From assembly GCA_964613815.1 (NCBI GenBank), contig CAZTKG010000003.1, positions 54,903 through 118,902 of the forward strand: a stretch of 64,000 nt of DNA. Reading direction: 5' to 3'. The notes below the pieces were generated by a model. The model made no database searches. It worked only from the letters and a program-made list of their open reading frames with translations, and was not told where the DNA came from. A program made the position numbers and the translations under genes. Below, one piece after another: positions 7,408 to 60,839 of this stretch; within the stretch, counting starts at the first letter, position 1; each line of letters opens with the position of its first letter. The DNA comes from an uncultured Gammaproteobacteria bacterium (lineage in GTDB: Bacteria > Patescibacteriota > Patescibacteriia > UBA9934).

Positions 7408-7482
7408 TGGAGCCATTGGGCGGATTTGAACCGCCGGCCTATGCTTTACGAAAGCATTGCTCTACCCCTGAGCTACAATGGC
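7408..7482 (-). tRNA. tRNA-Thr (anticodon CGU)
   Basis: Reverse complement GCCATTGTAGCTCAGGGGTAGAGCAATGCTTTCGTAAAGCATAGGCCGGCGGTTCAAATCCGCCCAATGGCTCCA folds as a cloverleaf. Anticodon loop TTCGTAA, with an encoded CCA. Confidence 0.8.
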
Positions 7483-7499: not shown

Positions 7500-7730
7500 G
7501 CCGTGTCATCGTTCTTTTTCTCCGCTTCTCGACTACGTACCATTAGTACGTCTTACTGCGATGCTCGAAAGAAGAACGATGACACGGCATTTTCCCTGCG
7601 TCTGGGTCTTTGCCAGTGCGATGTCATCATTCTTTTTCTCCGCTTCTCGACTACGTACCATTAGTACGTCTTACTGCGATGCTCGAAAGAAGAACGATGA
7701 CACGGCATTTTCCCTGCGTCTGGGTCTTTG
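7500..7730. repeat. tandem duplication (about 112 + 118 nt) of a long-hairpin element
   Basis: Copy 1 has perfect arms gccgtgtcatcgttcttt / aaagaagaacgatgacacggc around a roughly 50-nt loop that contains an inner acgtac/gtacgt hairpin. Copy 2 is identical except for 3 substitutions in the left arm. Both end in attttccctgcgtctgggtctttg. Confidence 0.6.
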
Positions 7731-15627: not shown

Positions 15628-15687
15628 GGAGGTATTATAGCAGGTTTTTTATGGTTTGATTTTGCTGATAAGCCCCATCTCCCAGGC

Positions 15688-15716
15688 TTGACATCTTGGT
15701 GATTTTCTGCTAGCGT
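15688..15716 (+). promoter_or_regulatory. candidate sigma70-type promoter for 15745..16308
   Basis: TTGACA (15688-15693), a 17-nt spacer, then TAGCGT. The -10 is weak, so this is tentative. Confidence 0.25.
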
Positions 15717-15744
15717 TTGGCTGCACCTTCAAATGGGAGAACCC

Positions 15745-16308
15745 ATGCAGACTCCGTATCAGCATTTCCTTGATAGCCTTTCCATTCTCATGCAGATGCT
15801 GCAGGATGGCAGGCTGGGACTCGACATGCTGGACGCGCTTCTCAACAATCCGCTGCGCGCCTATGGCAGCACCGCCATGTTGAGCCTCGGTGTGATTCCG
15901 ATCGATTTCAGCATCCCGATCACACTCTCTGCAGGCGAGTACACCAACGACCCTGAGCACCCGGTGAACCTGGAGCTGTTTCAGATGGAAGTCGATGCGG
16001 ATACGCCGCGCGGTCTGGAGCATTTCGAGATGCACCTCGTTCGTCTCGATCGCTACGGCGAGCCGACTGTGCAGCTACCTCGGGGCTCGCGTCCGGGATC
16101 GATCTGGCATCTCCTGATGCTGAACTTCACTCGCCCGGAGCTCGTCCGCCACCTCAACATGGTCGCGCTTGCCAAGATGGTCGGGAATGAACTCCCGATG
16201 CTTCACCGGCGAGGTCGCGAGACCTACCTGAGCCACGTCACGATGGCCCGGTTCGACACCAAGACTCTCGTCTACGGTATCTGGGTCGTCCCCGTTTCCG
16301 CTCCCTGA
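15745..16308 (+). CDS. hypothetical protein (higher-GC island)
   Basis: I chose the start at MQTPYQ (GGGAGAA upstream). No recognised motif. Sustained ORF with higher GC. Confidence 0.45.
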   Translation: MQTPYQHFLDSLSILMQMLQDGRLGLDMLDALLNNPLRAYGSTAMLSLGVIPIDFSIPITLSAGEYTNDPEHPVNLELFQMEVDADTPRGLEHFEMHLVRLDRYGEPTVQLPRGSRPGSIWHLLMLNFTRPELVRHLNMVALAKMVGNELPMLHRRGRETYLSHVTMARFDTKTLVYGIWVVPVSAP

Positions 16309-16355
16309 TTTTGAAGGGGCGGTTTTTTTGATCGCAAAAAAAGAGCCGTTATGGC

Positions 16356-17216
16356 TCAGATGACTGCTGACACCTCTTCCTCACCCACGTAGCGATTCAC
16401 GAGGTCGCGTACTGCGAGGAAAACCTCTGAGTTACTTAACCCAGCGCCGTTTTGGAGATCGGTAGAGATCCTAGCGATCACAGGGAGGACGTCCATATCT
16501 GATCGCCCTGTCTCAGCCCTCCTCATCTGCCTGTATCGATGAACCCCCCTGCAAAACGCCCCTTCGTCGTTACTTTTTCTACTGGTCCTTTCTGGCACTA
16601 CGAACAGCCTGGTTCTTCCAGCGGACTTGATCTGCAGAGCGATCTCGTCGTCTCCGTCCCCCCCTAGCATCACTACGTAATCCACCTTGAGATCGCCGTC
16701 GGACTCAGGTAATGGCTCTACCACTCGTAGGCCGTAGCAGTCGAGTGCGAAGATGAGGTGTGCAGAAACGAGCGCGCCACGCATAGAGCGGTGCCAGATC
16801 TTCCGACCTACCCCCTCGCCCCACCTTGACCTCATGAACTCCCCCCTGTCCTCGTCAGAGAGATAGAGCATCGCACGAACGAGTTCTTGCATGCCAAAGA
16901 TCGCGATTCTGAATGATGACCATGGGAATCGCCCCCTCCCCCTCTCTTGAGCGGTCGTCACCAGTATTGTCATGATGCTTCCGCGCAATGCGAATAGCAG
17001 ACCCCCGTGCCCCCTTGAATGATCGTCGGCTGCTGCTACGATGTCTCGCATAGCAGCACTTATCCGATCCCTCCTTCCTGAGACGAACGCTGCCACAACG
17101 TGCTCTTCATCGATTGAATCAAAACACGTCTTCAGGGCGTTCCACAGCACATCACCTCCAATGGTCTGGAATCTCTCCACGACCACTGCATGCCTCTCCT
17201 CTTCCTGTCCCCACAT
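16356..17216 (-). CDS. hypothetical protein (higher-GC island)
   Basis: 286-aa Arg/Asp-rich ORF with no recognised motif. It is convergent with 15745..16308 across an A/T palindrome. Confidence 0.45.
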   Translation of the reverse strand: MWGQEEERHAVVVERFQTIGGDVLWNALKTCFDSIDEEHVVAAFVSGRRDRISAAMRDIVAAADDHSRGHGGLLFALRGSIMTILVTTAQERGRGRFPWSSFRIAIFGMQELVRAMLYLSDEDRGEFMRSRWGEGVGRKIWHRSMRGALVSAHLIFALDCYGLRVVEPLPESDGDLKVDYVVMLGGDGDDEIALQIKSAGRTRLFVVPERTSRKSNDEGAFCRGVHRYRQMRRAETGRSDMDVLPVIARISTDLQNGAGLSNSEVFLAVRDLVNRYVGEEEVSAVI

Positions 17217-17288
17217 ATTCCCTCCATATTGGCTTTCTTGGGGTCGTGAGTTATACCTTAAATGCAGGCACCGGTCAATCCTCCATAC

Positions 17289-17317
17289 AAAAAACAGCGC
17301 CGGAGCGCTGGTTTTTT
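17289..17317 (-). terminator. rho-independent terminator (bidirectional geometry) after the zinc-ribbon mini-gene
   Basis: aaaaaa-CAGCGC-cgga-GCGCTG-gtttttt, a 6-bp GC stem flanked by A and T runs. It starts 5 nt beyond the stop of 17322..17576 (stop codon 17322-17324, flanking A-run ends 17317). Confidence 0.6.
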
Positions 17318-17321
17318 GATC

Positions 17322-17576
17322 TTACATCGCTGGAGCAGCTGTGTCGTCTCCTCCTTCGGCTGGTGCCTCTGGAGCAGCTTCTGCTGGTGCTTCAGCTGGA
17401 GCCTCTTCTGCTGGTGCTTCTGGTGCAGCAGCTTCTTCCGCCGGTGCTTCTGCTGGAGCCTCTGGAGCTGCTTCAGCTGGTGCTTCTGATGATGATCCAC
17501 CAGAACAGTTTGGACACATTCCGTCCGTTAGTTGCTCGTCAGCCAATTCGGCTGAACATCCTGTGCAAACGCCCAT
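17322..17576 (-). CDS. small zinc-ribbon protein with acidic PEAPAEA repeats
   Basis: 84 aa with CTGC...CPNC (two CxxC pairs), then (P/A)EAPAEA repeats encoded by tandem DNA repeats. Confidence 0.5.
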   Translation of the reverse strand: MGVCTGCSAELADEQLTDGMCPNCSGGSSSEAPAEAAPEAPAEAPAEEAAAPEAPAEEAPAEAPAEAAPEAPAEGGDDTAAPAM

Positions 17577-17607
17577 AAAGATGTAAAGTTAATGTAATTA
17601 CAGGGGG

Positions 17608-17636
17608 ATTATAGCTGAATATGTCGATATTTGCAA
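17608..17636 (-). promoter_or_regulatory. near-consensus sigma70-type promoter for the zinc-ribbon mini-gene
   Basis: On the minus strand: TTGCAA (17631-17636), a 17-nt spacer, then TATAAT (17608-17613). The ATG follows 31 nt downstream with no obvious SD. Confidence 0.45.
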
Positions 17637-17743
17637 ACCTCGATGGGAATTTCGCTAAGGTTATTTATTCGCGCGTTAAGATCGCTATTTCACGCCTTGA
17701 TTTTCTCCGCAGTTTGTGATATAAATTTCGCACCTCACATTGA

Positions 17744-17819
17744 GCGCCGGTAGCTCAGTTGGTAGAGCAAGGGCCTTTTAAGCCCGTGGTCGTGGGTTCG
17801 AGTCCCACCCGGCGTACCA
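17744..17819 (+). tRNA. tRNA-Lys (anticodon UUU)
   Basis: GCGCCGGTAGCTCAGTTGGTAGAGCAAGGGCCTTTTAAGCCCGTGGTCGTGGGTTCGAGTCCCACCCGGCGTACCA. Anticodon loop CTTTTAA, T-loop GGTTCGAGTCC, encoded CCA. Confidence 0.85.
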
Positions 17820-17825
17820 AGAAGT

Positions 17826-17851
17826 CATCGCGAAAGCGGTGGTTTTTTTTT
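17826..17851 (+). terminator. rho-independent terminator after tRNA-Lys
   Basis: CATCGCG-aaa-GCGGTGG stem-loop followed by T9. Confidence 0.6.
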
Positions 17852-17927
17852 GATGCGCAGCTTTAGGCACATTGACACGCCCCTTTCTTTATGACACTCT
17901 ACGCCTCCACCTTCACAAGGACTCGAC

Positions 17928-18872
17928 ATGAAACAAAAGAATAGTCATGTTGGCATTCTGGGCGATTTCTTTAATAGCCCCTTTATCACTCGAATAGGAC
18001 TCTGCCTTACTTCGAGGGAAGCTGGTCTTTGGTCGCAGATCTTGAGCTTGGAAGACGACCAAGACTTTCAGACGAACTCAGTGCGGCTCCGTGCATTCAT
18101 TGGCCGACTTGTTGATGCTCGCGTTGTTCAGATGATCGAGGAGGGTCGATATCGAATTACCGTGCCACTTGATCGGATCGTTTGCGTGGAGATTTATCGG
18201 CGCGCGAGAGTTAAGGTGCTTCCTGCCGAAGTTGAGACGATCACCTCTTTGCAGCGAACTGTCGTGAACATCCTTACGCTTCATGGGCGTACGTCTGTCA
18301 ATTCTGTACAGATGATGGCTGGGTCAAGGTGTCCGATTGAACGACTCGGAATCCTGATTGATGGACCCGATTCAGAGCCACTGCTTTGCCCGATTGGCTT
18401 TGCCATGGCCGAGCTTGTGCCTATGTCGGCGAGCGCCCTTGGCGATAAGCAGCGTAAGCTCCCGTTTCCACTTCCAGACTTCTACCTCGCAGATCCTGGC
18501 CCGAATATTCCGCGGAAATGGATGGTTGGAAGCGCTCTGATGGCACCACTTGCGGAGACGTGGGAAGTGCTCATCGCGATTGTTCGCGGCGTGGTTTCGC
18601 CGATGAGTAATCGACTGCTCGCGAAGCGGAAGAGACGACCTCTAGCACCCCCCTCGCCTGCTCCGCCAGCTGTCATCGCCCCTCCGGAGCCAACTCCCGT
18701 AGCACCGATACCGACACCCCCTCCGGATCCTGATCCTCTTCCGGCACTTCCTCTAGGGCTCTTGCCTGCCCTTTCTGCGCTTCTGTCTCGCGCTCATCCA
18801 ACCTCCGCGCGGAATATTCTGCGGCAACTCGGCGAGCTCAGCGGATCCGGAGATACATCGCCTCCACCTTAG
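17928..18872 (+). CDS. hypothetical protein with a Pro-rich C-terminal tail (higher-GC island)
   Basis: 314 aa. The N-terminal region may be winged-helix-like. The C-terminus is PPSPAPPAVIAPPEPTPVAPIPTPPPDPDP. No motif recognised. Confidence 0.45.
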   Translation: MKQKNSHVGILGDFFNSPFITRIGLCLTSREAGLWSQILSLEDDQDFQTNSVRLRAFIGRLVDARVVQMIEEGRYRITVPLDRIVCVEIYRRARVKVLPAEVETITSLQRTVVNILTLHGRTSVNSVQMMAGSRCPIERLGILIDGPDSEPLLCPIGFAMAELVPMSASALGDKQRKLPFPLPDFYLADPGPNIPRKWMVGSALMAPLAETWEVLIAIVRGVVSPMSNRLLAKRKRRPLAPPSPAPPAVIAPPEPTPVAPIPTPPPDPDPLPALPLGLLPALSALLSRAHPTSARNILRQLGELSGSGDTSPPP

Positions 18873-18916
18873 CGTCTTGCGCTGAGGTTTTTTTCATCTG
18901 TGAATAACCTTTACGC

Positions 18917-18940
18917 TCCCATCTCGACCCTGTGGAGATA
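18917..18940. repeat. half copy of the 27-bp-arm palindromic element
   Basis: tcccatctcgaccctgtggagata matches the left arm of the elements at 23722 and 24786 with 2 mismatches. No right arm. Confidence 0.5.
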
Positions 18941-18956
18941 GGAAGGGACTGAAGAA

Positions 18957-18991
18957 CTTTTTCATAAAAATCACACCCGTTTGCGGGTGTG
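18957..18991 (-). terminator. rho-independent terminator of 18992..20056
   Basis: On the minus strand, directly after the TAG stop: CACACCCG-caaa-CGGGTGTG followed by ATTTTTAT. Confidence 0.6.
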
Positions 18992-20056
18992 CTATGACGA
19001 TGTCAGCTTGCCTAACTCGCTCATGACGCGAGCCTGCATGGCCCTTGGAAGACTTTCGAGATGCGCCTTGTGGATGAGCATAGCCACGATCATGTCGACG
19101 CCGGTGAGGCGTTCGTCGACGCGAGCCATGACGCGCTGCTCTAGAGCGTCCATGCCGGTGAACTCGTCGATCGATGCGAGGACCGTGGCTTGGATGCGGG
19201 CTTCGGCGCCGTCGAACTCCTCCAGCCGTGCGCGTACCTCGTCGAGGCCACTCAGACGCTCTTCGATGAGAGCAACGAGTCGGTCCTCGATACCTTCGAT
19301 ACCAGCAAGCCCTGCAGTGATTTTTCGCGTGGACTCTCTTCGGAGGGATAGCCGAATTCGCTCCTCTGCACCAGCGAGCTGCGCAGCTCGCTGTTCGAGC
19401 GCCTGCTCCAGCTCTTCGATGCGCCGGATTCGATCGTCCATCTCGGTCATGACCGCGTGTTCGACGGCGCGTGCGATCTGACTCTGAGATTCGTCGACTT
19501 GCGTGAGCGCGCTGTCAAGCCTTTCTATGACGCGTGCCTCGACCACTCGAGCAATATGTACCTCGAATGCAGTCATCGGCGACTCGGGTACGGCTTTGCG
19601 TCCTGACTCAGCAGCGTCCACCTGAGGCGACTGAGGATCTCCGCCTCCACCGCCTTCGCTGCCCTCTCCTTGATGATCATCGGCCTCGGGAGCGCTCCTC
19701 CTCGCCCCCTCGAGCGCCTCCTGCCAGGGCAGAATGTCTACAACGACGTCGGTCCACTCGTAGAACTTTGGCCTCTTGCCAGCCCCTTCAGGCATGACAA
19801 CACCATCCGGCCTCGGGACCTCCCTGACCACGCCGTGTGTCACCGCTGTTCGCAATGCGCTCCCGGCGCTTGCGCGACTCTTGTATACCCCCTCGAAGTC
19901 CTCTTCGAGCATCAGCCAGACGCCCTGACCTTGAGTCCTCCAGAAGATGCGCCAGAATACTCCGTTGAACATTGTTCGCCGCATTGCAGGGACTGGACTT
20001 CTTGCAAGGACCACATCTGGACGAGTTCCGATGCCTTGTCTCTGACCTTCTGTCAT
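18992..20056 (-). CDS. hypothetical protein with C-terminal coiled-coil repeats (higher-GC island)
   Basis: 354 aa. A Gly/Glu-rich linker is followed by repeated R(I/V)xxLExRLxxxD heptad-like units. Confidence 0.45.
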   Translation of the reverse strand: MTEGQRQGIGTRPDVVLARSPVPAMRRTMFNGVFWRIFWRTQGQGVWLMLEEDFEGVYKSRASAGSALRTAVTHGVVREVPRPDGVVMPEGAGKRPKFYEWTDVVVDILPWQEALEGARRSAPEADDHQGEGSEGGGGGDPQSPQVDAAESGRKAVPESPMTAFEVHIARVVEARVIERLDSALTQVDESQSQIARAVEHAVMTEMDDRIRRIEELEQALEQRAAQLAGAEERIRLSLRRESTRKITAGLAGIEGIEDRLVALIEERLSGLDEVRARLEEFDGAEARIQATVLASIDEFTGMDALEQRVMARVDERLTGVDMIVAMLIHKAHLESLPRAMQARVMSELGKLTSS

Positions 20057-20168
20057 GATTTCTCCTTTTGATTATTGTTCTGTCCGATTTACCGGACAAG
20101 AGGAGAACTTTTTCATTTTTTGGCTCATTTGTCAAGCATTTTGGGTGCTCATGCTATGATCTAGCGGT

Positions 20169-21373
20169 ATGCAAAAAGCTCTTGAATCGAATATTTGGAA
20201 GTACGCGGTTTATCTTGTGACGAATAAGAAGGTGTATGTCGCCATCTTGAGTGCGTATTATTTGACGATTCCGAATGTGACGGCGCAGAGCATTGGGCTG
20301 ATTACGCTTGTTTCGATGCTTGGTGGGTTCTTTTTTGAGATTCCTAGTGGGTATGTTTCGGATAAGATTGGGCATAAGCAGGCGCTTATTTTGGCAAAGG
20401 TGCTTGGACTGATCTCTACTGTTCTCTATCTTTTTGCGGATAATCTTCTTCTTTTGATCTTTGGCGCTGTCATGCTCAGTATTGGCGTCGCGTTTCATAG
20501 CGGGACCGGGAGTGCGTTTTTGCATGAGACGCTTTCTGGACTGAAGCGGGCGAAAGATTATGCGCGGGTTTCTGGGAAGCTTAGTTCGATTGGGTTCGCG
20601 GTGCCGATTGTGCTTTCTACGACGATTCCGTTTTTGGTGAGTATTGATTATAGTTTGCCGTTTTTGATTGCGCTTGTGCTGGATACTGCAGGTGTGATTG
20701 TAGCGATGTCGCTCGTCACCCCGAAAGCAAGCCAGCATGAGATTGAGGAGATTCGGAAGACGAACTTTTGGCAGGTGATGAAGTCTGGTCGGGAGATGAA
20801 GGTGTTTAGCTTCTTGATATTCTCTGGAGTTTTGGCGGCATTCTTGATGTCTGCTGGACGCTTTCGGGCGCCTTACCAGGTATTTTTGGAAGTTCCGGTG
20901 ATTTGGTATGGGGTCTTTCATGGGACTGGGCGGATTTTGCGTCTATTTTGCTCGCGTATACTGGGAAGATTCGAGAGCGGATTTCGCTTTTTGGGCTTTA
21001 TCGGTTTCAGTTATTGATCTTTGGCTTGTTTTTAATTGCACTTGGGGTTTCGACGTCGGCGCCGGTAATTGTAGGGTCCCTGCTTTTGATGAATGGATTC
21101 CAGTGGGGGCTGAGTAAGGTTGATCAGAGTTTTATGATGGACCTGCTTGGGCAGAGTAAGTTTAAGGCGACGCTTCTTTCTGTTCGGGGGCAGATTTGGC
21201 TGGTGACCGGGGCGACTCTTGGGTTTTTGCTTGGGACGGTGATTGATTGGGTTGGGTATCGGGAAGGGTTTTTGTGGTATGCGGTGGCGTTTTTGATTCT
21301 TCTTGTGCCGATGTATGTATATATTCATGTTCGGCATCGGGATGTGAATGAGAAGCTTTTGTCTGTGAAATAA
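20169..21373 (+). pseudogene. MFS transporter, frameshifted (two ORFs 20169..21017 and 20903..21373 in different frames)
   Basis: Both pieces are polytopic and MFS-like. The frame switches near 20890-20950. This could be a pseudogene or a sequencing error. Confidence 0.55.
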
Positions 21374-21405
21374 AACTCCCGCCACGTGTGTGACGGGTTT
21401 CCCCT

Positions 21406-22868
21406 TCAGTGCGCTTTGGCGCCTGATTTGGGGAAGGCGTTGTAGATCCTGATGGACAGGACGGCGCCGAGGATGACGAATGGGAGGATGACGAGGGGCC
21501 AGGCCATCCAGGTGCTGGGGTCTTTGGCTGCGTCTCCGGTCGTCAGGAAGTAGCCCATGGTGATGGAGTGCAGGCCGGTGCCGATGTAGACGCATCCGTC
21601 GACGATGCCGACGGCCTTTCCGGTGTTCTTGACGCCAGAGAAGTCGGCTGCTGCGGTGCCAGAGAGGATGCCGTGCACGCCGAGGACGCAGGCTGCGACC
21701 ACGAGGACTCCTGCGCCGGTGATCCAGGAACCCATGCCAGGGCCGTTCGCTGTGAGCGACGCGACGATGGCGACGATGGCGACGGTCATGGCTCCGTAGG
21801 AGATCATGACCATCGGGCCGCGCTTGGAGCCGAAGAACTTGTCGGAGATCCAGCCAGTCATGAAGCCGCCGGTGACGCCACAGATGAGGAGACAGAAGCC
21901 CCAGTTGCTTGTGACGTGGAAGTCCTTGTAGAAGCCGACCGAGTGGGCGAACTGCGGGTAGTATTGGAAGACGCCGTTTCGGATGATGCCGGAGCAGAAT
22001 TCGATGGCGCAGATGATCAGGAGGACGCGATGCTTCTTGCCGGTCGCGATGGTCTTGATCATCTCCCAAAGGCCGAGCGTTCGGTCTGCGACCTGTTGGT
22101 CACCGGTCTCGAAGTCCTCGAACTTACCCGTGTCGCTTGGCTTGTTGCGGAGGAAGATCAGCATGGCCAGGAACCATGGGATCGCGAAGAGTGCCGGGAA
22201 GAGGAACATCCACCAGTTCTGGTCTACGCCGGTGTTTGCGGCGCCGAGCAGGTTGTAGAAGATGGACTCGGTGACATTGAGGTCCGCGAGCACCACGTCC
22301 GCCTTGCGCGTGACTGTGCGGATGGCGTATCCCCAGTCGAAGGCGAAGTAGATGCCGGTGCTGATCATGATGCCGAAGATGGTACCGAACGTGCCGCGTT
22401 CGCGGACGTGGAACCAGGGCATCTTGGTGGTGACGATCGACATGGCTCCCAGGCTCTGGAAGAACATGTTGACTGCGTAGAGCACGGTGAGCGCATGGGT
22501 GAGCTGGATGTCCCAGCCCTTCATCATGACGCCGTAGATGACGGCAGCCATGGCGAGATTGGCTGTTACAGCCCCAGCGACGCCGACGAGCATGCCGCGA
22601 CGGCCGCCGTAGCGATCGACGAGCGGACCCCGTTCACCATGAAGCCGATGAAGTAGAAGATCGCGCCAATGCCGAAGATGAAGCCGAACTCGTTGATGTC
22701 CATGAGCTCGTCGCCGAGGGCGCTTTTTGCCGGGTTGAGGCAGTAGCGCATGAACATCAGGCTGGCGTAGCCGAAGCCGAGCGGGAACCAGTTGAGAAAG
22801 CGTCGGAAACGGTATTCCGGCGGGTGGATTGGGACGTTGTTTTTGTCGAATTTGAGTGTACGTGCCAT
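21406..22868 (-). pseudogene. GlpT/UhpT-family organophosphate:phosphate antiporter (MFS), frameshifted
   Basis: The N-terminal piece (22566..22868) aligns by eye to the E. coli GlpT N-terminus (YRRLR.. vs YRFRRF..; GYAAYY vs GYASLMF). The 395-aa piece continues in another frame. The frameshift is near 22590-22610. About 62% GC. GGAGG sits 6 nt upstream of the ATG. Confidence 0.55.
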
Positions 22869-22945
22869 CGATTACCTCCGTCGAAGACGGGGGTAGTTAA
22901 CCTTTTATTGAGGTTATTGTCAATGAATTTATGCCAGTATTTACC

Positions 22946-22974
22946 TTGACAAATTGAGAATTATTGGCTAAATT
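22946..22974 (+). promoter_or_regulatory. candidate sigma70-type promoter for 23018..23668
   Basis: TTGACA (22946-22951), a 17-nt spacer, then TAAATT (22969-22974), in an AT-rich intergenic stretch. Confidence 0.35.
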
Positions 22975-23017
22975 TTTGAGTCTTCGCTATGGTTAGGTAG
23001 TGAGACAGGGAGAGAAT

Positions 23018-23668
23018 ATGCACCTTTTTTGGCTGATTTTTGTCGCGATCGCCTCGGCGGGGACCGAGTGGGCGGAGCGTTTGGATAAGGTCCAAGGCGA
23101 CTGTCGATCTGACCAACTGGTCTCGTGGGCGTCTGCGTACCACTCTGACTGTGATGCTGCGGTGGCCGTCGATGGCGTGCCGGGCATCATGTTCGATGTG
23201 GTGAGTGCGTACTGGGGCGATGGCCAGTTGAATCTCAGTGTCGTGGATGACAAGGTTGTCTACTTCGGCCTGATCGGCGAGGAGAAGGCGGCGGCGTACG
23301 GGATCGATCAGGGCGTGTACGTCGTGTGGGGCGATCGGATGACGCGGACGCCGAACGGCGTTGCCTCGCATCCGCATGTGCTTCTGAAAGCCGACGGGAC
23401 CGAGAAGCGTTTGAACTTTGCTTTTTTCGCCGACATCGACGGGCAACTTGCCTTTGAGGCGTATGGCGAAGAGGGTCAGGGTCGGACGCTCGTGATCGGG
23501 GAACGTACGGCGAACAACACGCGGAAGGTTCGGCATCTGAAGATGGTAAGTCTGTGCAAGGACGATGACATCATGACGCGCGAATGCAAGCGTAAGTCCG
23601 TGCATGTGAGCACGGTCTTCGATGATGAGTGGACTGAGACCGCGTGGGTCAGCGCCAAGGCTCGGTGA
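23018..23668 (+). CDS. hypothetical secreted protein
   Basis: I chose the start at MHLFWLIFVAIASAGTEWA, which is signal-peptide-like with GGGAGAGAA upstream. No recognised domain. Confidence 0.45.
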   Translation: MHLFWLIFVAIASAGTEWAERLDKVQGDCRSDQLVSWASAYHSDCDAAVAVDGVPGIMFDVVSAYWGDGQLNLSVVDDKVVYFGLIGEEKAAAYGIDQGVYVVWGDRMTRTPNGVASHPHVLLKADGTEKRLNFAFFADIDGQLAFEAYGEEGQGRTLVIGERTANNTRKVRHLKMVSLCKDDDIMTRECKRKSVHVSTVFDDEWTETAWVSAKAR

Positions 23669-23721
23669 GTCTCGTAGCACCTGAATGGGTGCTCTTTTTG
23701 TTTTTTCGCCTTTCCGATGTC

Positions 23722-23795
23722 TCCCATCTCGACCTTGCGGAGAGATCTCTTCGAACACATTAGCGGCAAGATCTCTCCGCAAGGTCGAGATGGGA
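23722..23795. repeat. palindromic intergenic element (27-bp perfect inverted arms, 20-nt spacer)
   Basis: tcccatctcgaccttgcggagagatct (23722-23748) and its exact reverse complement (23769-23795). Confidence 0.7.
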
Positions 23796-23857
23796 AATAA
23801 TGATTATGATCCATGAAAAAAATCCCTCCACTTAGGGACGGATGCGGTACTGGGTGC

Positions 23858-24697
23858 TCAGACGAGCTTGAACCAGCGTTTGGAGACGAGTTCGTAGTTG
23901 GCGACGCCGAGGAGGGCTCCGATGGTGGCGGAGGCGATGAAGACGGCGAAGACTTCGGGGCGGGTCATGGTGGGGTCGTAGAGGACGAGGTAGCCGAAGA
24001 CGGTGGCGAGGCCGGTGTCGAAGGCGCAGATGAGGCGTTCGTGGCAGTGGATTTTGCGGAAGAACTTTCCGATGCCGATGATGATGAGTGCCAGGATTGC
24101 GCAGACGATGGCTACAGGGAATATGCATCCTGTTACTGCCCAGATTATTGCGTTCTCGTAATCGAGATCTGCATACTCGTACTCATGCTTTTCCCGATAG
24201 TCTGACGACCTCCAAGATCTCTTTAAGATGAACTCTGCTCCGAATTCGGTGAGCAGCTTGAATACTGCTGTAGCCAGAGTTGAGATGAGAAGGATCAGCA
24301 CTGGAATAGCAATGTTTCCCATCAGAATACTTCCCGACCCACCAATGATCGCTTCGAATGCGATCTCTTCGAAGGTCATCCCGGTCTCAGCGTGCCGGAA
24401 CAGGATCCAGGCAAGCGGACTGAGTGCGATTGCCGTGAAGAAGAAGAGATGGAATGGGCGCGGCTGCTCTGCCCACTTGGCAACACCTCTTCTGATTTCG
24501 ATCAGGCCCTGACAGCTCTGCTGTGCCACTTCCACTGCAGCCTTGTGGGTCTCCCTGAAGCGATATGACAGGAAAGCGGTGCCCATGCCGACGATGAGGC
24601 CGAGCCACCAGATGCTCGCTGGGAGGGTGATCGCTGTGCCGATACCGGTGGTGACACCGAGGATGATCGCGAGGGCGATTTCGTGTCTGGTTTTCAT
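23858..24697 (-). CDS. hypothetical polytopic membrane protein
   Basis: 279 aa with about 7 predicted TMs. It is flanked on both sides by the palindromic elements. Confidence 0.5.
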   Translation of the reverse strand: MKTRHEIALAIILGVTTGIGTAITLPASIWWLGLIVGMGTAFLSYRFRETHKAAVEVAQQSCQGLIEIRRGVAKWAEQPRPFHLFFFTAIALSPLAWILFRHAETGMTFEEIAFEAIIGGSGSILMGNIAIPVLILLISTLATAVFKLLTEFGAEFILKRSWRSSDYREKHEYEYADLDYENAIIWAVTGCIFPVAIVCAILALIIIGIGKFFRKIHCHERLICAFDTGLATVFGYLVLYDPTMTRPEVFAVFIASATIGALLGVANYELVSKRWFKLV

Positions 24698-24785
24698 GAA
24701 AAGAGCTCCTGTGCGGACGGGATGTCCGGTGAAATTACCGTAACTTAGCTTTTTATTGGCGTCAATGACCGGATCATTCTCTTTT

Positions 24786-24860
24786 TCCCATCTCGACCTT
24801 GTGGAGAGATCTTGCAGCTATTCGCGCTCGAAAGGATCTCTCCGCAAGGTCGAGATGGGA
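24786..24860. repeat. palindromic intergenic element (second full copy)
   Basis: tcccatctcgaccttgtggagagatct (24786-24812) and gatctctccgcaaggtcgagatggga (24835-24860), with a 22-nt spacer and one arm mismatch. Confidence 0.7.
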
Positions 24861-24914
24861 AACGAAGGAGAGGTAGGTTGATGATATCGAGCGATGAAAA
24901 AAGACCCGGATGGG

Positions 24915-58117: not shown

Positions 58118-59317
58118 TTGCTTATTGTGTCCAATCGAAAAGAAGACGAATTTTTGTATCGGGAGCTTTGTGAGCTGCCGACCTTCCCTTTTCATGCTTT
58201 GACCCGGCCGAGCAAGGAAAGCGTAACGCGATCTCGGTTGGCGTTTTTTGATACGCGAAAATTGCCGAGGTTTGCCTACCCCCGTGCTCGTAGGTACCCG
58301 GTGGATGATTATTTGCAACATGTTGACGGGTTTTTGAAGGTGATTTTGACGAGCAAGGTGCGAGCTAGGGTTCAGGAGCTGTATGTCGCGAAGGCTCGAG
58401 AGCTCCGGCTTCGGGCGGAGATCGTGCAGGCGATTTGCGCTGGGGATGATGAGGGAGTGAGCACGAAGACGCTTGAGCTATTTGGACCGATCGCGAATAC
58501 TCGAGGCGAACTTGAGGCTGAGTTTGGAGAGATGATTTCTGGGGGCACCCCTTTGTATCGGCATGAAAAGCGGATTAATGCGGAAATGATGCATGGGATG
58601 GTTGAGAGCGCGCTGCAGCATTATGGCATTACGAATGTTGATATTCGTCCGACGGGGCGGTCTGGGATGCGGGTTGCGCAGATTCCGGGGGCTGGGATGC
58701 GCGTGAAGATTCCTCGGGATATTTTGATTTCTCGAGCTCGGGCGGTGAGATTGATTGCACATGAAATTGAGGTACATGCGCTTCGGGCGCATAACGGAGC
58801 GAATAGTCCGCTCATGATCTTGGCTCGTGGACTGGATGGGTATTTAGCGACTGAAGAGGGGTTAGCGATTTGGCATCAGAATTCGATGAGCGGGAAGGCT
58901 CGGCGGTTTGATCCGGGGTTTTGGGAGGCTTATGCGAATGTTTTAGCTGGAGAGATGTCATTTGTGGAGGTTTTTGATGTTTTGAGTCAGGCTCGTGCAT
59001 TGCTAGCTGATCATGTTGGGAATGAGGATCCTGTAGAGGCCGGGCGTGATGCTGCTTGGCGGCTCTGCCTGCGGGTTTATCGGGGGATTTCGAAATTTGA
59101 TACTGCTGGAGTTGGCTTTTATCGGGACCACGTGTATCGATCTGGACTTATGATGGTTCGAAATGTGATCCATGATGGCTACAAGGAGAATATTCGGCCC
59201 CTCTTTTCTGGGAAGCTCGGTGTCAATCATTTGGATAAACTTTCTGATATTGAGTTAGGACATGTTCGCGTGCCCGAAGGGATTGGGAGAGAAATCGTTG
59301 ATTCCGCAATGCTATAG
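58118..59317 (+). CDS. DUF1704-family protein (QEGLA-motif, MATCAP-like HExxH metallopeptidase fold)
   Basis: HEIEVHALRAHNG (HExxH) and TEEGLAIW (QEGLA-like). 399 aa. Confidence 0.5.
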   Translation: MLIVSNRKEDEFLYRELCELPTFPFHALTRPSKESVTRSRLAFFDTRKLPRFAYPRARRYPVDDYLQHVDGFLKVILTSKVRARVQELYVAKARELRLRAEIVQAICAGDDEGVSTKTLELFGPIANTRGELEAEFGEMISGGTPLYRHEKRINAEMMHGMVESALQHYGITNVDIRPTGRSGMRVAQIPGAGMRVKIPRDILISRARAVRLIAHEIEVHALRAHNGANSPLMILARGLDGYLATEEGLAIWHQNSMSGKARRFDPGFWEAYANVLAGEMSFVEVFDVLSQARALLADHVGNEDPVEAGRDAAWRLCLRVYRGISKFDTAGVGFYRDHVYRSGLMMVRNVIHDGYKENIRPLFSGKLGVNHLDKLSDIELGHVRVPEGIGREIVDSAML

Positions 59318-59345: not shown

Positions 59346-59370
59346 AAAAACCCCCTCTTTAGCTAGGGGG
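59346..59370 (-). terminator. terminator hairpin at the convergent junction
   Basis: CCCCCT-ctttagct-AGGGGG. On the minus strand it is followed by a T-run and overlaps the stop of 59363..60058. Confidence 0.5.
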
Positions 59371-60058
59371 ACTTGGCGCGCACCTCCTTTGCCCTGAGGC
59401 ATTTGGAGATGTAGAGAACTCTTGTTGCCAGGGACTCGTGGAGCCATGCGGCTCGTGGCTGGTCGGCTGTTGCGATCGCGGCCTCTAGCGATCTGAGCAG
59501 GCCTGGCTCTGTCGCCTGCCTCACGACCGCCTTGTGGCCCTGGATGTACAGTAGGCCGCTTTTGTGGCGACTCGTCATCCATGCGAATTTCATGATTGTT
59601 CGCGGATCCAGCCCGCTTATTTCGGCGAGTTTGGATAGCATTGCCCAATGGACAACCTTCGCCTCATTGTCCTGAAATGCCACACGTGATGGGACTCGGT
59701 CTTTCCATTGGAACTTGGCCGGGTGGCTGCCGAGGCCACTTGCCGTCACGCGCCTCCCAATCCTTGCCTCCCAAAAACCGCCACCGTCTCCAGAGATTGT
59801 TGCGATCGGGCACGGACTCCAGAGAAGCAACATCTTGGCTTGCATGATTGGCCCAAGGTTTTCAACGCTTGTCACAACGCCTTCTACCCTGCTTGATGCG
59901 ATCACCCTTGGTCTTTCCAGAACCGCACAGGTCAGCCTGTGTGTGAAGACCTGAGCCTTTGCAGCGAACATCTCTTCTGGAATTTTTCCTTCCCCGATCT
60001 CCAGATTGCCGGTGACAAGTCCGGATTGATATGAGCCCAGAACTGCTTGAATGCGCAT
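59363..60058 (-). CDS. hypothetical protein
   Basis: The ORF is open to 60199. I prefer the start at MRIQAV, which has GGAGAAGAA 5 nt upstream and lies downstream of an intergenic terminator hairpin. No recognised motif. Confidence 0.4.
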   Translation of the reverse strand: MRIQAVLGSYQSGLVTGNLEIGEGKIPEEMFAAKAQVFTHRLTCAVLERPRVIASSRVEGVVTSVENLGPIMQAKMLLLWSPCPIATISGDGGGFWEARIGRRVTASGLGSHPAKFQWKDRVPSRVAFQDNEAKVVHWAMLSKLAEISGLDPRTIMKFAWMTSRHKSGLLYIQGHKAVVRQATEPGLLRSLEAAIATADQPRAAWLHESLATRVLYISKCLRAKEVRAKSP

Positions 60059-60135
60059 TTCTTCTCCTGAATGAACTGTTCTTGGATGTTTTCCAAGGCA
60101 GATGAGAATATCACTCCTCGTGCTTTTTGTCAATG

Positions 60136-60158
60136 AAAAATCCCCTCTTTCGGAGGGG
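60136..60158 (-). terminator. rho-independent terminator of 60162..60839
   Basis: CCCCTC-tttcg-GAGGGG directly after the stop. On the minus strand it is followed by ATTTTTCATT. Confidence 0.55.
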
Positions 60159-60161
60159 TTG

Positions 60162-60839
60162 CTATGCGCAGATCGCGATGAATGTGCCGGTGTCTTCAAG
60201 GGTGTCTGGATGGCGGGCCCAGCCGAAGGGGATGGCTTGGCGGGTCCAGCGGGTGAGGATAGCGATGCGATTGAAGGCTTCGCGGTCGCCGATGGCGGCG
60301 TAGAGCGCGAGGGCGCGGAGGCCTGAGAAGATACTGAAGGAAAGGAGCGTGGCCAGATTTGGGCTCGGGAGGCCGAGCCTACGTCCGAGCTCCCTCCCGA
60401 TCGCGTTCATCGGATGCTCACCGCCAAGCGCCGTCTCGAGGGCGGAAAACTCCGATACCTTCCTTCCGCAGCGAGAATCACTCACGGCCTCGTCGTAGAC
60501 CTCTGTGCGCAGACGAAGCTGTACGCCATTTGTCAGCACCCCCTGCAATGCATCGCTTGCCGGCGCCAGAACCAACTGTCGGAACTCGCGTTCACGAATC
60601 CATCCCGGGCGCTTCAGTGGCACGCTGAGTTCTCGGAACGAGATGAAATGCACGGCGTCGACCTGCATTCCGGTGGCTGCAGCTACCTGTGCCGCATACG
60701 TTGACTCCATGCGGCGCATGGGAGCCTGACCGCGCAGTGACATCGACACTAACCACTCCGCGTGTGTTCTGATGTCTTGCTTTGCCCAGGGCCGATGCTT
60801 TTCTGGGATGAGTTCGAGGATTGCTTCTGTGAGGGTCAT
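60162..60839 (-). CDS. hypothetical protein
   Basis: 225 aa with no recognised motif. GC is higher than flanking DNA. Confidence 0.4.
   Translation of the reverse strand: MTLTEAILELIPEKHRPWAKQDIRTHAEWLVSMSLRGQAPMRRMESTYAAQVAAATGMQVDAVHFISFRELSVPLKRPGWIREREFRQLVLAPASDALQGVLTNGVQLRLRTEVYDEAVSDSRCGRKVSEFSALETALGGEHPMNAIGRELGRRLGLPSPNLATLLSFSIFSGLRALALYAAIGDREAFNRIAILTRWTRQAIPFGWARHPDTLEDTGTFIAICA

Follow-up and report, generated by a model that had tools for sequence, protein, structure and literature searches.

In the analysed window, a 64-kb stretch of DNA from an ultra-small, uncultured, Uhrbacteria-like member of the Patescibacteria, murG and a GT4 gene are separated by 9287 bp holding protein-coding genes, a tRNA gene and a palindromic repeat (Table 1). 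The ~8.7 kb of extra DNA behind murG, with six hypothetical genes and two broken transporter genes, was recognised by comparing gene order with that of distant relatives, not with an island-prediction tool; relatives were compared within 10 kb of murG, and even the nearest is distant (MurG 52% identical). Across 82 related Patescibacteria loci, the backbone order is murG, (Zn-ribbon mini-gene), tRNA-Lys(UUU), (GT4) and P-type ATPase, and in the 19 relatives with both murG and a GT4 orthologue the gap between the two measures 502 to 4753 bp (median 1677). For example, in L008 (MurG 52% identical), mraY-ftsW-murG is followed by a 1.27-kb gap containing the Zn-ribbon gene, tRNA-Lys and tRNA-Ser, and then by GT4 and the ATPase. 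None of the eight cargo proteins had a tblastn match (E < 1e-4) within 10 kb of murG in the 82 relatives, and unrelated genes occupy the gaps of relatives at this locus. An initial annotation, made from the sequence alone, had described the segment as accessory, and the comparison agrees that it is extra.

Table 1. Features of the murG-to-GT4 interval, with positions in the window
Feature	Position	Strand	Remarks
Block A, extra DNA with convergent hypothetical pair	15628-17321		GT4 to Zn-ribbon gene; GC 55-60%
h191, hypothetical	15733-16308	+	likely true start 15745, giving 187 aa; GGGAG motif before 15745; terminator-like hairpin 16302-16319
h286, hypothetical	16356-17216	-	GGAGGG motif upstream; terminator 16357-16343
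Zn-ribbon mini-gene, 84 aa	17322-17576	-	N-terminal CxxC...CxxC; Ala/Pro/Glu-rich repeat tail
tRNA-Lys(UUU)	17744-17819	+	ARAGORN; Rfam 71.5 bits
Block B, extra DNA	17850-24914		tRNA-Lys 3' side to murG
h314, hypothetical, Pro-rich C-terminal tail	17928-18872	+	AAGGA motif upstream; terminator 18866-18888
Palindrome, lone degenerate arm	18917-18938	+	2 mismatches to arm consensus; partner arm absent
h354, hypothetical, 354 aa	18992-20056	-	AAGGAGA motif upstream; terminator 18991-18972
MFS#1, frameshifted	20169-21373	+	frame a 20169-21017; frame b on to 21373
MFS#2, OPA (organophosphate:phosphate antiporter)/GlpT-like, frameshifted	21406-22868	-	ORFs 22868-22566 (100 aa, N-terminal) and 22593-21406 (395 aa)
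h222, hypothetical, 216 aa from ATG	23018-23668	+	GGGAGAG motif before 23018; terminator 23676-23693
Palindrome, full copy 1	23709-23797 (core 23722-23795)		27-bp perfect stem, 20-nt loop
tm279, membrane protein	23858-24697	-	7 hydrophobic segments (Kyte-Doolittle hydropathy); AGGAG motif upstream
Palindrome, full copy 2	24784-24873 (24784-24862)		opposite orientation to copy 1; loop and flanking sequences match as reverse complement

The tRNA-Lys, which is followed just 3' by a hairpin and a T9 run, is found downstream of murG at 43 of the 82 related loci, in either orientation. The Zn-ribbon mini-gene, which has internal repeats, was matched by tblastn just downstream of murG in 8 of the 82 and is usually divergent from tRNA-Lys. 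Because both are found at this position in relatives, we regard them as core and not as cargo, although they had first been placed inside the island. The extra DNA instead forms two blocks flanking this pair, one on each side. The interval corresponding to Block A measures 0.1 to 0.7 kb in two relatives with the gene order seen here (L010 and L014). On the side of Block B, murG and tRNA-Lys are 7.1 kb apart, compared to mostly 0.06 to 1.6 kb in relatives whose tRNA is oriented as here, four of which have 3.2 to 3.9 kb.

The hypothetical genes include two convergent pairs, h191/h286 and h314/h354, as originally described. A Shine-Dalgarno-like motif precedes five of the six genes, and a separate terminator-like hairpin is present for five; from their sequence, the six look like independent transcription units. 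No relatives were detected for any of them, the exhaustive homology search covering h354 alone: phmmer against 1.84 billion representatives returned no homologue beyond its own cluster, and by this measure h354 is a strict orphan. Neither h191, h286, h314 nor h222 had a family match, and none above noise was found for tm279; h191 also had no viral-contig relative and h314 no viral match. The AF2 model of h286 was unusable (pLDDT 47), and that of h314 had a pLDDT of 35. The N-terminus of h222 is signal-peptide-like (MHLFWLIFVAIASA), which, with the hydrophobic segments of tm279, fits the secreted protein and the 7-TM protein annotated earlier.

The GC content of the island is 54.9%, compared to 49.9% in the rest of the window, and is the highest of all 9.26-kb windows in the 64 kb. 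The enrichment reported in the initial annotation was thus real, but its range of 58 to 63% throughout was not: GC is patchy, reaching at least 58% in ~14 of 37 overlapping 500-bp windows, and blocks of 58 to 63% stand beside one of 43 to 50% at 20.0 to 21.25 kb (the first MFS gene), at or under the genome average. Spurious long ORFs were indeed present on both strands, at 21.0 to 22.7 kb. A second GC-rich orphan pair lies elsewhere in the window, at 59.4 to 60.8 kb. Five of the six hypothetical genes have elevated GC (GC3 0.75, z 3.4, for h191 and 0.74 for h222), a pattern also compatible with most of the cargo having come from one source of higher GC. Across the cargo, however, GC3 spans 0.52 to 0.86, and this mosaic composition, along with the two blocks on either side of the tRNA, speaks against the single island originally envisaged.

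Both transporter genes occupy two reading frames each, as first noted. The first part of MFS#1 matches Pfam MFS_1 (E 2.8e-15), and the joined 401 aa match MFS_1_like over positions 24 to 371 of 373; its shift lies near GGATTTTGCG, at ~20930 to 20945, and its composition is host-like (GC3 0.53). The GlpT-like character of MFS#2 was confirmed by a match of its family profile to the GlpT structure 1PW4 (E 5.8e-22), and the residues aligned to GlpT R45 and R269, which we take to be substrate-binding residues, are invariant in the family. Its shift lies within MFS motif A, where the alignment has N-GPLVDR in homologues and AACGGGGTCCGCTC here. The family thus shares motif A and the two arginines with E. 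coli GlpT, UhpT and PgtP (OPA). Unlike these, it scores 38.8 bits against an NCBIfam equivalog cut-off of 632 (glpT), far under the cut-offs and therefore indicative of a distinct subfamily, and the copy here is frameshifted.

MFS#2 has a GC3 of 0.86 (z 5.3), and its codon bias had been read as a sign of an Actinobacteria-like donor. However, in each of the five Patescibacteria genomes compared, one of them at 39% GC, the GC3 of this family is an outlier, and codon bias therefore does not name the donor. The closest intact homologues (485 aa, 71 to 74% identical) come from Parcubacteria/Patescibacteria wherever a source is named, and they are solitary among housekeeping genes, in unrelated neighbourhoods. 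Since MurG itself reached no more than 52% identity to any of 5.8 billion proteins, the higher identity of MFS#2 points to acquisition within the phylum and not from Actinobacteria.

Both frameshifts need a -1 correction, lie at short homopolymer runs (G4, T4) and are identical, with 0 gaps, in five samples from ENA and JGI assemblies (L001-L004 and L094). Because they recur in independent assemblies, the two transporters are most likely recent pseudogenes, in keeping with the degradation suggested at the outset. It is very improbable that both genes are functional, whether by programmed -1 ribosomal frameshifting or as transporters made in two pieces. The direction of the shifts, the homopolymer runs and the fixation of the frameshift alleles in five samples would suit this reading, as would the good conservation of the MFS#2 halves (84% and 72% identical to P0122, and free of additional stop codons) and the Shine-Dalgarno-like motif kept by this gene. 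Against it, the canonical X XXY YYZ slippery heptamer is absent at both sites, the close homologues of MFS#2 are all single uninterrupted ORFs (473 to 489 aa), and the MFS#2 shift falls in the conserved motif A loop, so that a split would part TM2 from TM3. It would also be improbable for programmed frameshifting to have arisen independently in two unrelated transporters.

Three palindromic copies had been reported, two of which are full, while the third is a lone arm that does not fold (z -1.3). The full copies bracket tm279, with folding energies of -58 to -62 kcal/mol (z -11) for copy 1 and -54 to -60 kcal/mol (z -8 to -9) for copy 2. A fourth copy is located upstream of holB, outside the island, for a total of four intergenic sites in ~84 kb of this genome. 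Like REP/BIME, Correia and RUP elements, the palindrome is short (~80 nt) and consists almost entirely of 27- to 29-bp inverted arms. Unlike REP/MITE-like repeats, it had no recognised target-site duplication and was not found in other genomes, and one copy has the opposite arm order; we know of no cognate transposase.

Integrase, transposase and recombinase domains were absent from every ORF tested, as the initial annotation had stated for integrases and transposases. For the hypothetical cargo, nothing significant was returned from PADLOC, PHROGs, Pfam or NCBIfam, and viral-contig scans with three of the proteins were likewise negative. Nor was there a match in INPHARED phages or PLSDB plasmids, which were searched by tblastn with the full set of six, two of these in truncated form. 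The proposed selfish or defence role of the cargo therefore found no backing in these searches, and we infer that the region contains no currently active mobile element. The att-type search was likewise null, as expected from the initial inspection, in that repeats of the tRNA-Lys 3' end did not exceed 12 nt, a length expected by chance. Nothing shows use of the tRNA as an attachment site, and it is present at the locus in island-free relatives.

These results bear on whether a single integrative element targeted the tRNA-Lys 3' end, later losing its integrase and att repeats and undergoing rearrangement, with an inversion of the tRNA/Zn-ribbon module separating Block A from the remainder. As in the classical tRNA-integrated islands of Proteobacteria (at tRNA-Lys, tRNA-Leu or tmRNA), a tRNA adjoins DNA of atypical composition and the larger block is on its 3' side, Block B beginning directly past the 3' end and terminator. 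The tRNA/Zn-ribbon pair occurs in both orientations among relatives, and inversions therefore occur at the locus; most cargo genes also share the GC enrichment. Nevertheless, we consider this scenario quite unlikely. The tyrosine or serine recombinase and the direct repeat of the tRNA 3' end seen in classical islands are lacking here, and the extra DNA flanks the tRNA on both sides. Composition is uneven, with MFS#1 host-like and MFS#2 extreme, homologues of MFS#2 elsewhere share no common element, and phage and plasmid matches are absent.

Island genes were carried, as far as each contig reaches, by 13 of 13 GT4 contigs and 18 of 18 murG contigs, several of which stop before or within the island, and no island-free variant was seen among them. 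The population is clonal, and the region is invariant in the sampled populations. Foreign DNA joined by the assembler, or a binning chimera, might be suspected from the differing composition of the flanks and from assembly breaks inside the region, several at 16679 to 16870 (inside h286) and, in Logan contigs, at 24792 (palindrome copy 2). Yet both outer junctions are reproduced at 100% identity in 110- to 200-kb contigs from different samples (ENA and JGI), and the core tRNA-Lys/Zn-ribbon pair sits mid-region, making an artefact scarcely credible.

It could also be hypothesized that nothing was acquired, i.e., that fast-evolving or newborn lineage-specific genes expanded in place and that GC is a gene-specific property. 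The lack of homologues of h354, the family-wide high GC3 of MFS#2 with no donor signature, the further GC-rich orphan pair and the fixed state of the region would all be compatible with this. Still, we judge it unlikely: the 74% identity of MFS#2 exceeds that of any MurG (at most 52%) and would be difficult to explain by vertical descent, de novo origin of six well-formed genes within 9 kb is improbable given their Shine-Dalgarno-like motifs and terminator-like hairpins (five each), and the gaps of relatives contain unrelated genes.

Patescibacteria/CPR genomes carry hundreds of genomic islands, mostly single-gene and transferred within the phylum (PMC12455944). Like these, the region is a lineage-specific block of atypical composition in a conserved backbone, its cargo is mostly hypothetical plus membrane and transport genes, and the sole gene of traceable origin leads to another Patescibacteria lineage. 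It differs in being devoid of any mobility genes, in its mosaic make-up, with two blocks or more, and in that two of its eight genes are most likely already pseudogenes.

We favour a model in which the interval would normally hold little more than the Zn-ribbon mini-gene and tRNA-Lys(UUU), and the ~8.7 kb would have been gained to either side of the tRNA, by two separate events at the least and probably by more. Entry would have proceeded without an integrase, through recombination with DNA that had been taken up, at a presumably insertion-tolerant operon boundary with convergent terminators, and the dispersed palindrome bracketing tm279 may have been a source of recombination substrates. The region is an ordinary variable region whose cargo is decaying, a type of feature already known, and the murG to GT4/P-type ATPase interval is probably a plasticity zone of this Uhrbacteria-like lineage, which grew piecemeal.

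The extra DNA between the GT4 gene and murG was set against the corresponding loci of relatives. The best match of MurG among 5.8 billion proteins was 52% identical, and the top genome matches were labelled Candidatus Uhrbacteria or Patescibacteria group. Scanning GTDB genomes with a MurG alignment retrieved 82 related loci. In the nearest relative (locus L008), mraY-ftsW-murG was followed by a 1.27-kb gap, GT4 and a P-type ATPase gene, with the gap holding a 65-aa Zn-ribbon gene, tRNA-Lys(UUU), a small ORF and tRNA-Ser; in another, murG was followed by a 223-aa gene and then the ATPase gene. tRNA-Lys(UUU) was found downstream of murG in 43 of the 82 loci, in either orientation, and the Zn-ribbon gene was detectable in eight of the 82, mostly divergent from the tRNA. 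Indeed, two loci (L010 and L014) displayed the exact order of the window, i.e., murG, tRNA-Lys on the opposite strand, the Zn-ribbon gene, GT4 and the ATPase gene. Given this conservation, the tRNA and the mini-gene, which the initial annotation had counted as island content, are part of the backbone, and the extra DNA consists of two blocks. The genes listed in that annotation were all recovered: besides the tRNA and the mini-gene, these were two convergent pairs of hypothetical genes, two MFS genes each lying in two frames, a hypothetical protein whose N-terminus resembles a signal peptide, and a protein whose seven hydrophobic segments mark it as membrane-bound.

Coordinates and third-position GC content (GC3) of features at the locus, of homologous transporter genes in other Patescibacteria, and of assembly breaks
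Feature	Sequence	Position	Strand	GC3	Remark
Block A	window	15628-17321			h191, h286
Zn-ribbon mini-gene	window	17322-17576	-		84 aa
tRNA-Lys(UUU)	window	17744-17819			
Block B	window	~17850-24914			h314, h354, MFS#1, MFS#2, h222, tm279
MFS#1	window	20169-21373	+	0.53	host-like
MFS#2 (GlpT-like, OPA family)	window	21406-22868	-	0.86 (z 5.3)	neighbours 0.55
h191	window			0.75	hypothetical
h222	window			0.74	hypothetical
tm279	window			0.71	membrane protein
h354	window			0.65	hypothetical
h286	window			0.62	hypothetical
h314	window			0.52	hypothetical, host-like
OPA gene	L090	10001-11458		0.91	neighbours 0.64
OPA gene	L092	10001-11422		0.95	neighbours 0.62
OPA gene	L096	8001-9458		0.82	neighbours 0.54
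OPA gene	L095	8001-9356		0.51	39% GC Uhrbacteria; neighbours 0.29 ± 0.03
Break inside h286	L103	16823			contig end
Break inside h286	L094	16824			38 N
Break inside h286	L102	16870			contig end
Break inside h286	L004	16679			contig end

The distance from murG to GT4 ranged from 502 to 4753 bp (median 1677 bp) in the 19 loci with a GT4 orthologue, compared to 9287 bp in the window, and tblastn of the eight cargo proteins gave no match (E < 1e-4) in the 82 loci. The segment is thus extra relative to these relatives, as had been proposed, and its cargo is absent from the same site in all of them; however, even the nearest is just 52% identical in MurG. Larger gaps in some relatives contained unrelated ORFs, which fits an insertion-tolerant site. 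It was also observed that the Zn-ribbon protein, with its Ala/Pro/Glu-rich repeat tail, and tRNA-Lys(UUU) form a conserved divergent pair directly downstream of murG (window 17322-17819; L008 3340-3795; also L010, L014, L017 and L035). Relatives carry the pair in either orientation, which implies that local inversion has recurred. Elsewhere in the window, beside tRNA-Thr(CGU) at 7408-7482, a 118-bp unit is tandemly duplicated (7504-7730; 1.9 copies, 99% identical), each unit holding a long inverted repeat, GCCGTGTCATCGTTCTTT…AAGAACGATGACACGGC.

Large contigs representing several samples and two sources of assemblies (ENA SUTE22-1, at least three samples; ENA SCRA20-1; JGI 3300008625) reproduced the locus at 100% identity and with zero gaps, while one contig (L004) differed by 5 SNPs in 10.3 kb. 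Since the same sequence was obtained across samples and sources, both MFS frameshifts are reproducible, and an assembly chimera can for practical purposes be dismissed. All 18 murG-bearing and all 13 GT4-bearing contigs ran into island genes as far as each reached, several ending before or inside the island, and no island-free variant was seen among them. Four independent assemblies broke or gapped within about 200 bp inside h286 (16679-16870), a stretch that other assemblies cross; the breaks may be due to a C-rich tract (CCCCCTCGCCCCACC) or to a minor structural variant. An apparently split h286 in sample SCRA20-1 was rejected as a mutation, being a run of 38 N in the scaffold. The SNPs separating the window from L004 (16717, 17507, 19377, 21170 and 23962) all fell within 16.7-24.9 kb, and the core sequence in the comparison (2.1 kb) carried none; five in total are too few for statistics. 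Both of the SNPs that were translated were non-synonymous (h354 L227R and tm279 R246C).

With regard to composition, the GC rise reported for the interval was borne out as an enrichment and not as a continuous plateau. The segment 15640-24900 has 54.9% GC compared to 49.9% for the remaining window (50.6% for the whole), the maximum of all 9.26-kb windows in the 64 kb. In a sliding-window check, the enrichment was patchy, with high blocks at 15.75-17.25 kb (55-60%), 18.25-20.0 kb (58-61%), 21.25-22.75 kb (59-63%) and 23.0-23.75 kb (58-60%), and just 43-50% at 20.0-21.25 kb. The long spurious ORFs noted on both strands were also present, lying over the GC3-rich MFS#2. The GC3 values of the cargo genes (see the table) were read against 41 other long ORFs in the window (0.547 ± 0.059, maximum 0.70). 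A second GC-rich ORF pair lacking any Pfam match was observed at 59363-60839 (278 aa, GC 0.55; 225 aa, GC 0.61), adjoining a MATCAP/DUF1704-like gene at 58118-59317. The 225-aa ORF had the top GC3 outside the island (0.70), and GC-rich orphan genes may recur in this genome.

MFS#2 is not one intact ORF of the expected ~450-490 aa; it is divided between an ORF of 100 aa and one of 395 aa, which lie in different frames. The shift lies inside MFS motif A, where homologues read N-GPLVDR and the window reads AACGGGGTCCGCTC, and a -1 correction is needed. When repaired, the protein had uninterrupted homologues of 473-489 aa at 70-74% identity, occurring singly in unrelated neighbourhoods, and those with a named source were Parcubacteria/Patescibacteria. 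As MurG reached at most 52% identity in any genome, the 74% identity of MFS#2 indicates, at the level of sequence, acquisition by transfer within Patescibacteria. Within-phylum transfer is a published pattern for these bacteria (PMC12455944).

A profile of 30 members of the MFS#2 family matched GlpT (1PW4; E 5.8e-22), and TIGR00881 (PgtP subfamily) matched MFS#2 with E 5e-15. Phmmer of single MFS sequences against PDB gave no match, so that GlpT was reached by the family profile only. In the repaired protein, R41 and R296 were invariant across the family alignment, opposite 'VRKN' and 'LLRYG' of 1PW4; their counterparts in GlpT, R45 (TM1) and R269 (TM7), are its substrate-binding residues. Scores for GlpT orthology fell far below the cut-offs (TIGR00712, 38.8 bits vs 632.55; NF008433, 32 bits vs 748). 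By these comparisons, MFS#2 is a predicted member of an OPA-like subfamily to which the NCBIfam equivalog cut-offs assign no substrate. An Actinobacteria-like codon bias had been noted in this gene as pointing to a higher-GC donor. This argument fails, because the OPA gene had a higher GC3 than any of its neighbours in each of the five Patescibacteria genomes examined, including one of 39% GC in which ribosomal and tRNA-synthetase genes surround it. The excess may stem from gene-specific codon selection or from repeated transfer, and the case cautions that high GC3 in a gene can reflect its whole family and be no donor fingerprint.

In MFS#1, the shift was located at GGATTTTGCG, and with the frames joined, the Pfam MFS_1_like match covered 24-371 of 373 positions instead of 24-239. 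Both transporters are therefore frameshifted as initially annotated, one of them GlpT/UhpT-like. Reproducible shifts could in principle belong to transporters that still function; a canonical slippery heptamer was found at neither site, and we consider functional products extremely improbable.

For the six hypotheticals, searches of NCBIfam, PHROGs, PADLOC and Pfam (the last with E up to 10) returned nothing significant; tblastn against INPHARED phages and PLSDB plasmids was negative, and relatives of h314, h286 and h191 were not found in IMG/VR scans. In an exhaustive search of 1.84 billion representatives, h354 was a strict orphan, matching its own cluster alone, and the 90%-identity clusters of the hypotheticals held members from this population alone. 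They nevertheless look like genuine genes, transcribed separately, judging from sequence signals: GC was lowest at codon position 2, a Shine-Dalgarno-like motif preceded five of the six (that of h222 before the ATG at 23018; the exception being h191 at its listed start), and a terminator-like hairpin followed the stop codon in five of the six (all except tm279). AlphaFold2 single-sequence models were unusable for fold searches (pLDDT 46.8 for h286 and 35.4 for h314). The C-terminus of h286 (…VDYVVM…ALQIKS…) was considered as a PD-(D/E)xK/DUF4365 nuclease motif and rejected, as Pfam gave no support at E up to 10. The proposed selfish or defence-type cargo was not substantiated in PADLOC, Pfam, PHROGs, IMG/VR, INPHARED or PLSDB, which yielded no recognisable defence-system, phage or plasmid proteins: the best PADLOC E-values (0.012-0.08) were noise, Pfam nuclease, ATPase and methylase domains were absent, and PHROGs E-values were 0.015 or worse. 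An in-place, lineage-specific origin of the region would accord with the orphan status of h354 and less readily with the 74% identity of MFS#2 to homologues in other Patescibacteria, and appears rather unlikely. On a further reading, which is very unlikely, these six genes would all function in an episymbiotic Patescibacteria lineage to which they are restricted, with surface, regulatory or host-interaction roles, and would have come together from a higher-GC source so far unsampled. The OPA family, consistently rich in GC3, would then mark a gene passed repeatedly among Patescibacteria for scavenging phosphorylated metabolites; if so, the loss of the OPA transporter here would record a recent change in the lineage's uptake from its host.

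The initial annotation had counted three palindromic copies, of which two are full (stems of 27-29 bp, -54 to -62 kcal/mol, z -8 to -11.5), lying on either side of tm279 and inverted relative to each other; what was counted as the third is a lone degenerate arm at 18917-18938. A fourth copy was found on contig L098 (19429-19508), upstream of holB and about 6.7 kb left of the window's start, with its arms in the opposite order (rcX - 18 nt - X, where rcX is the reverse complement of arm X), as in the inner arms flanking tm279. The element thus has dispersed copies with terminal inverted repeats, as in MITE/REP-like families (in the island two complete copies and a single arm, near holB one more copy), and because one copy lies outside the island, the family is dispersed and gives no boundary signal. 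No target-site duplication was visible at the copy ends. An exact metagenome-wide scan for the arm gave only a chance match within a PBP gene and did not recover the genome's own contigs either. Rfam matches were below-threshold microRNA hairpin models and meaningless, and integron attC sites were rejected, as core-site motifs and tandem orientation were absent, the copies being inverted.

This palindrome was the only repeat found in the island. A 25-nt query from the tRNA-Lys 3' end (up to 3 mismatches) matched itself alone, blastn-short of the tRNA and flank against 15.5-25.1 kb gave matches of at most 12 nt (E 0.08 or worse), and neither block had boundary repeats, in line with the earlier failure to find a direct repeat by eye. 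The reported lack of an integrase or transposase likewise held, with Pfam, NCBIfam and PHROGs scans of candidate genes at 15.6-24.9 kb giving MFS domains only. A single degraded integrative element would fit the position of block B, which starts on the 3' side of tRNA-Lys; the uniformly atypical composition expected of a tRNA-targeting island from one donor was not seen, the cargo GC3 spanning 0.52-0.86, and we regard this origin as unlikely. The best explanation, which we hold to be probable, is that imported DNA recombined piecemeal at a permissive operon boundary and that, after this accumulation, the two transporters would have decayed.

Together, these results describe a genuine insertion zone of a known kind that is specific to the lineage and modestly enriched in GC. 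Nothing points to an active or novel system; the feature is largely ordinary and its value modest. It is a clean case, anchored by synteny, of a variable hotspot within the streamlined genome of a member of the Patescibacteria, directly downstream of the mraY-ftsW-murG cell-wall cluster, showing transfer within the phylum as well as rapid pseudogenisation. The GlpT-like organophosphate-antiporter family occurs widely across Patescibacteria and may be relevant to how these symbionts scavenge metabolites.
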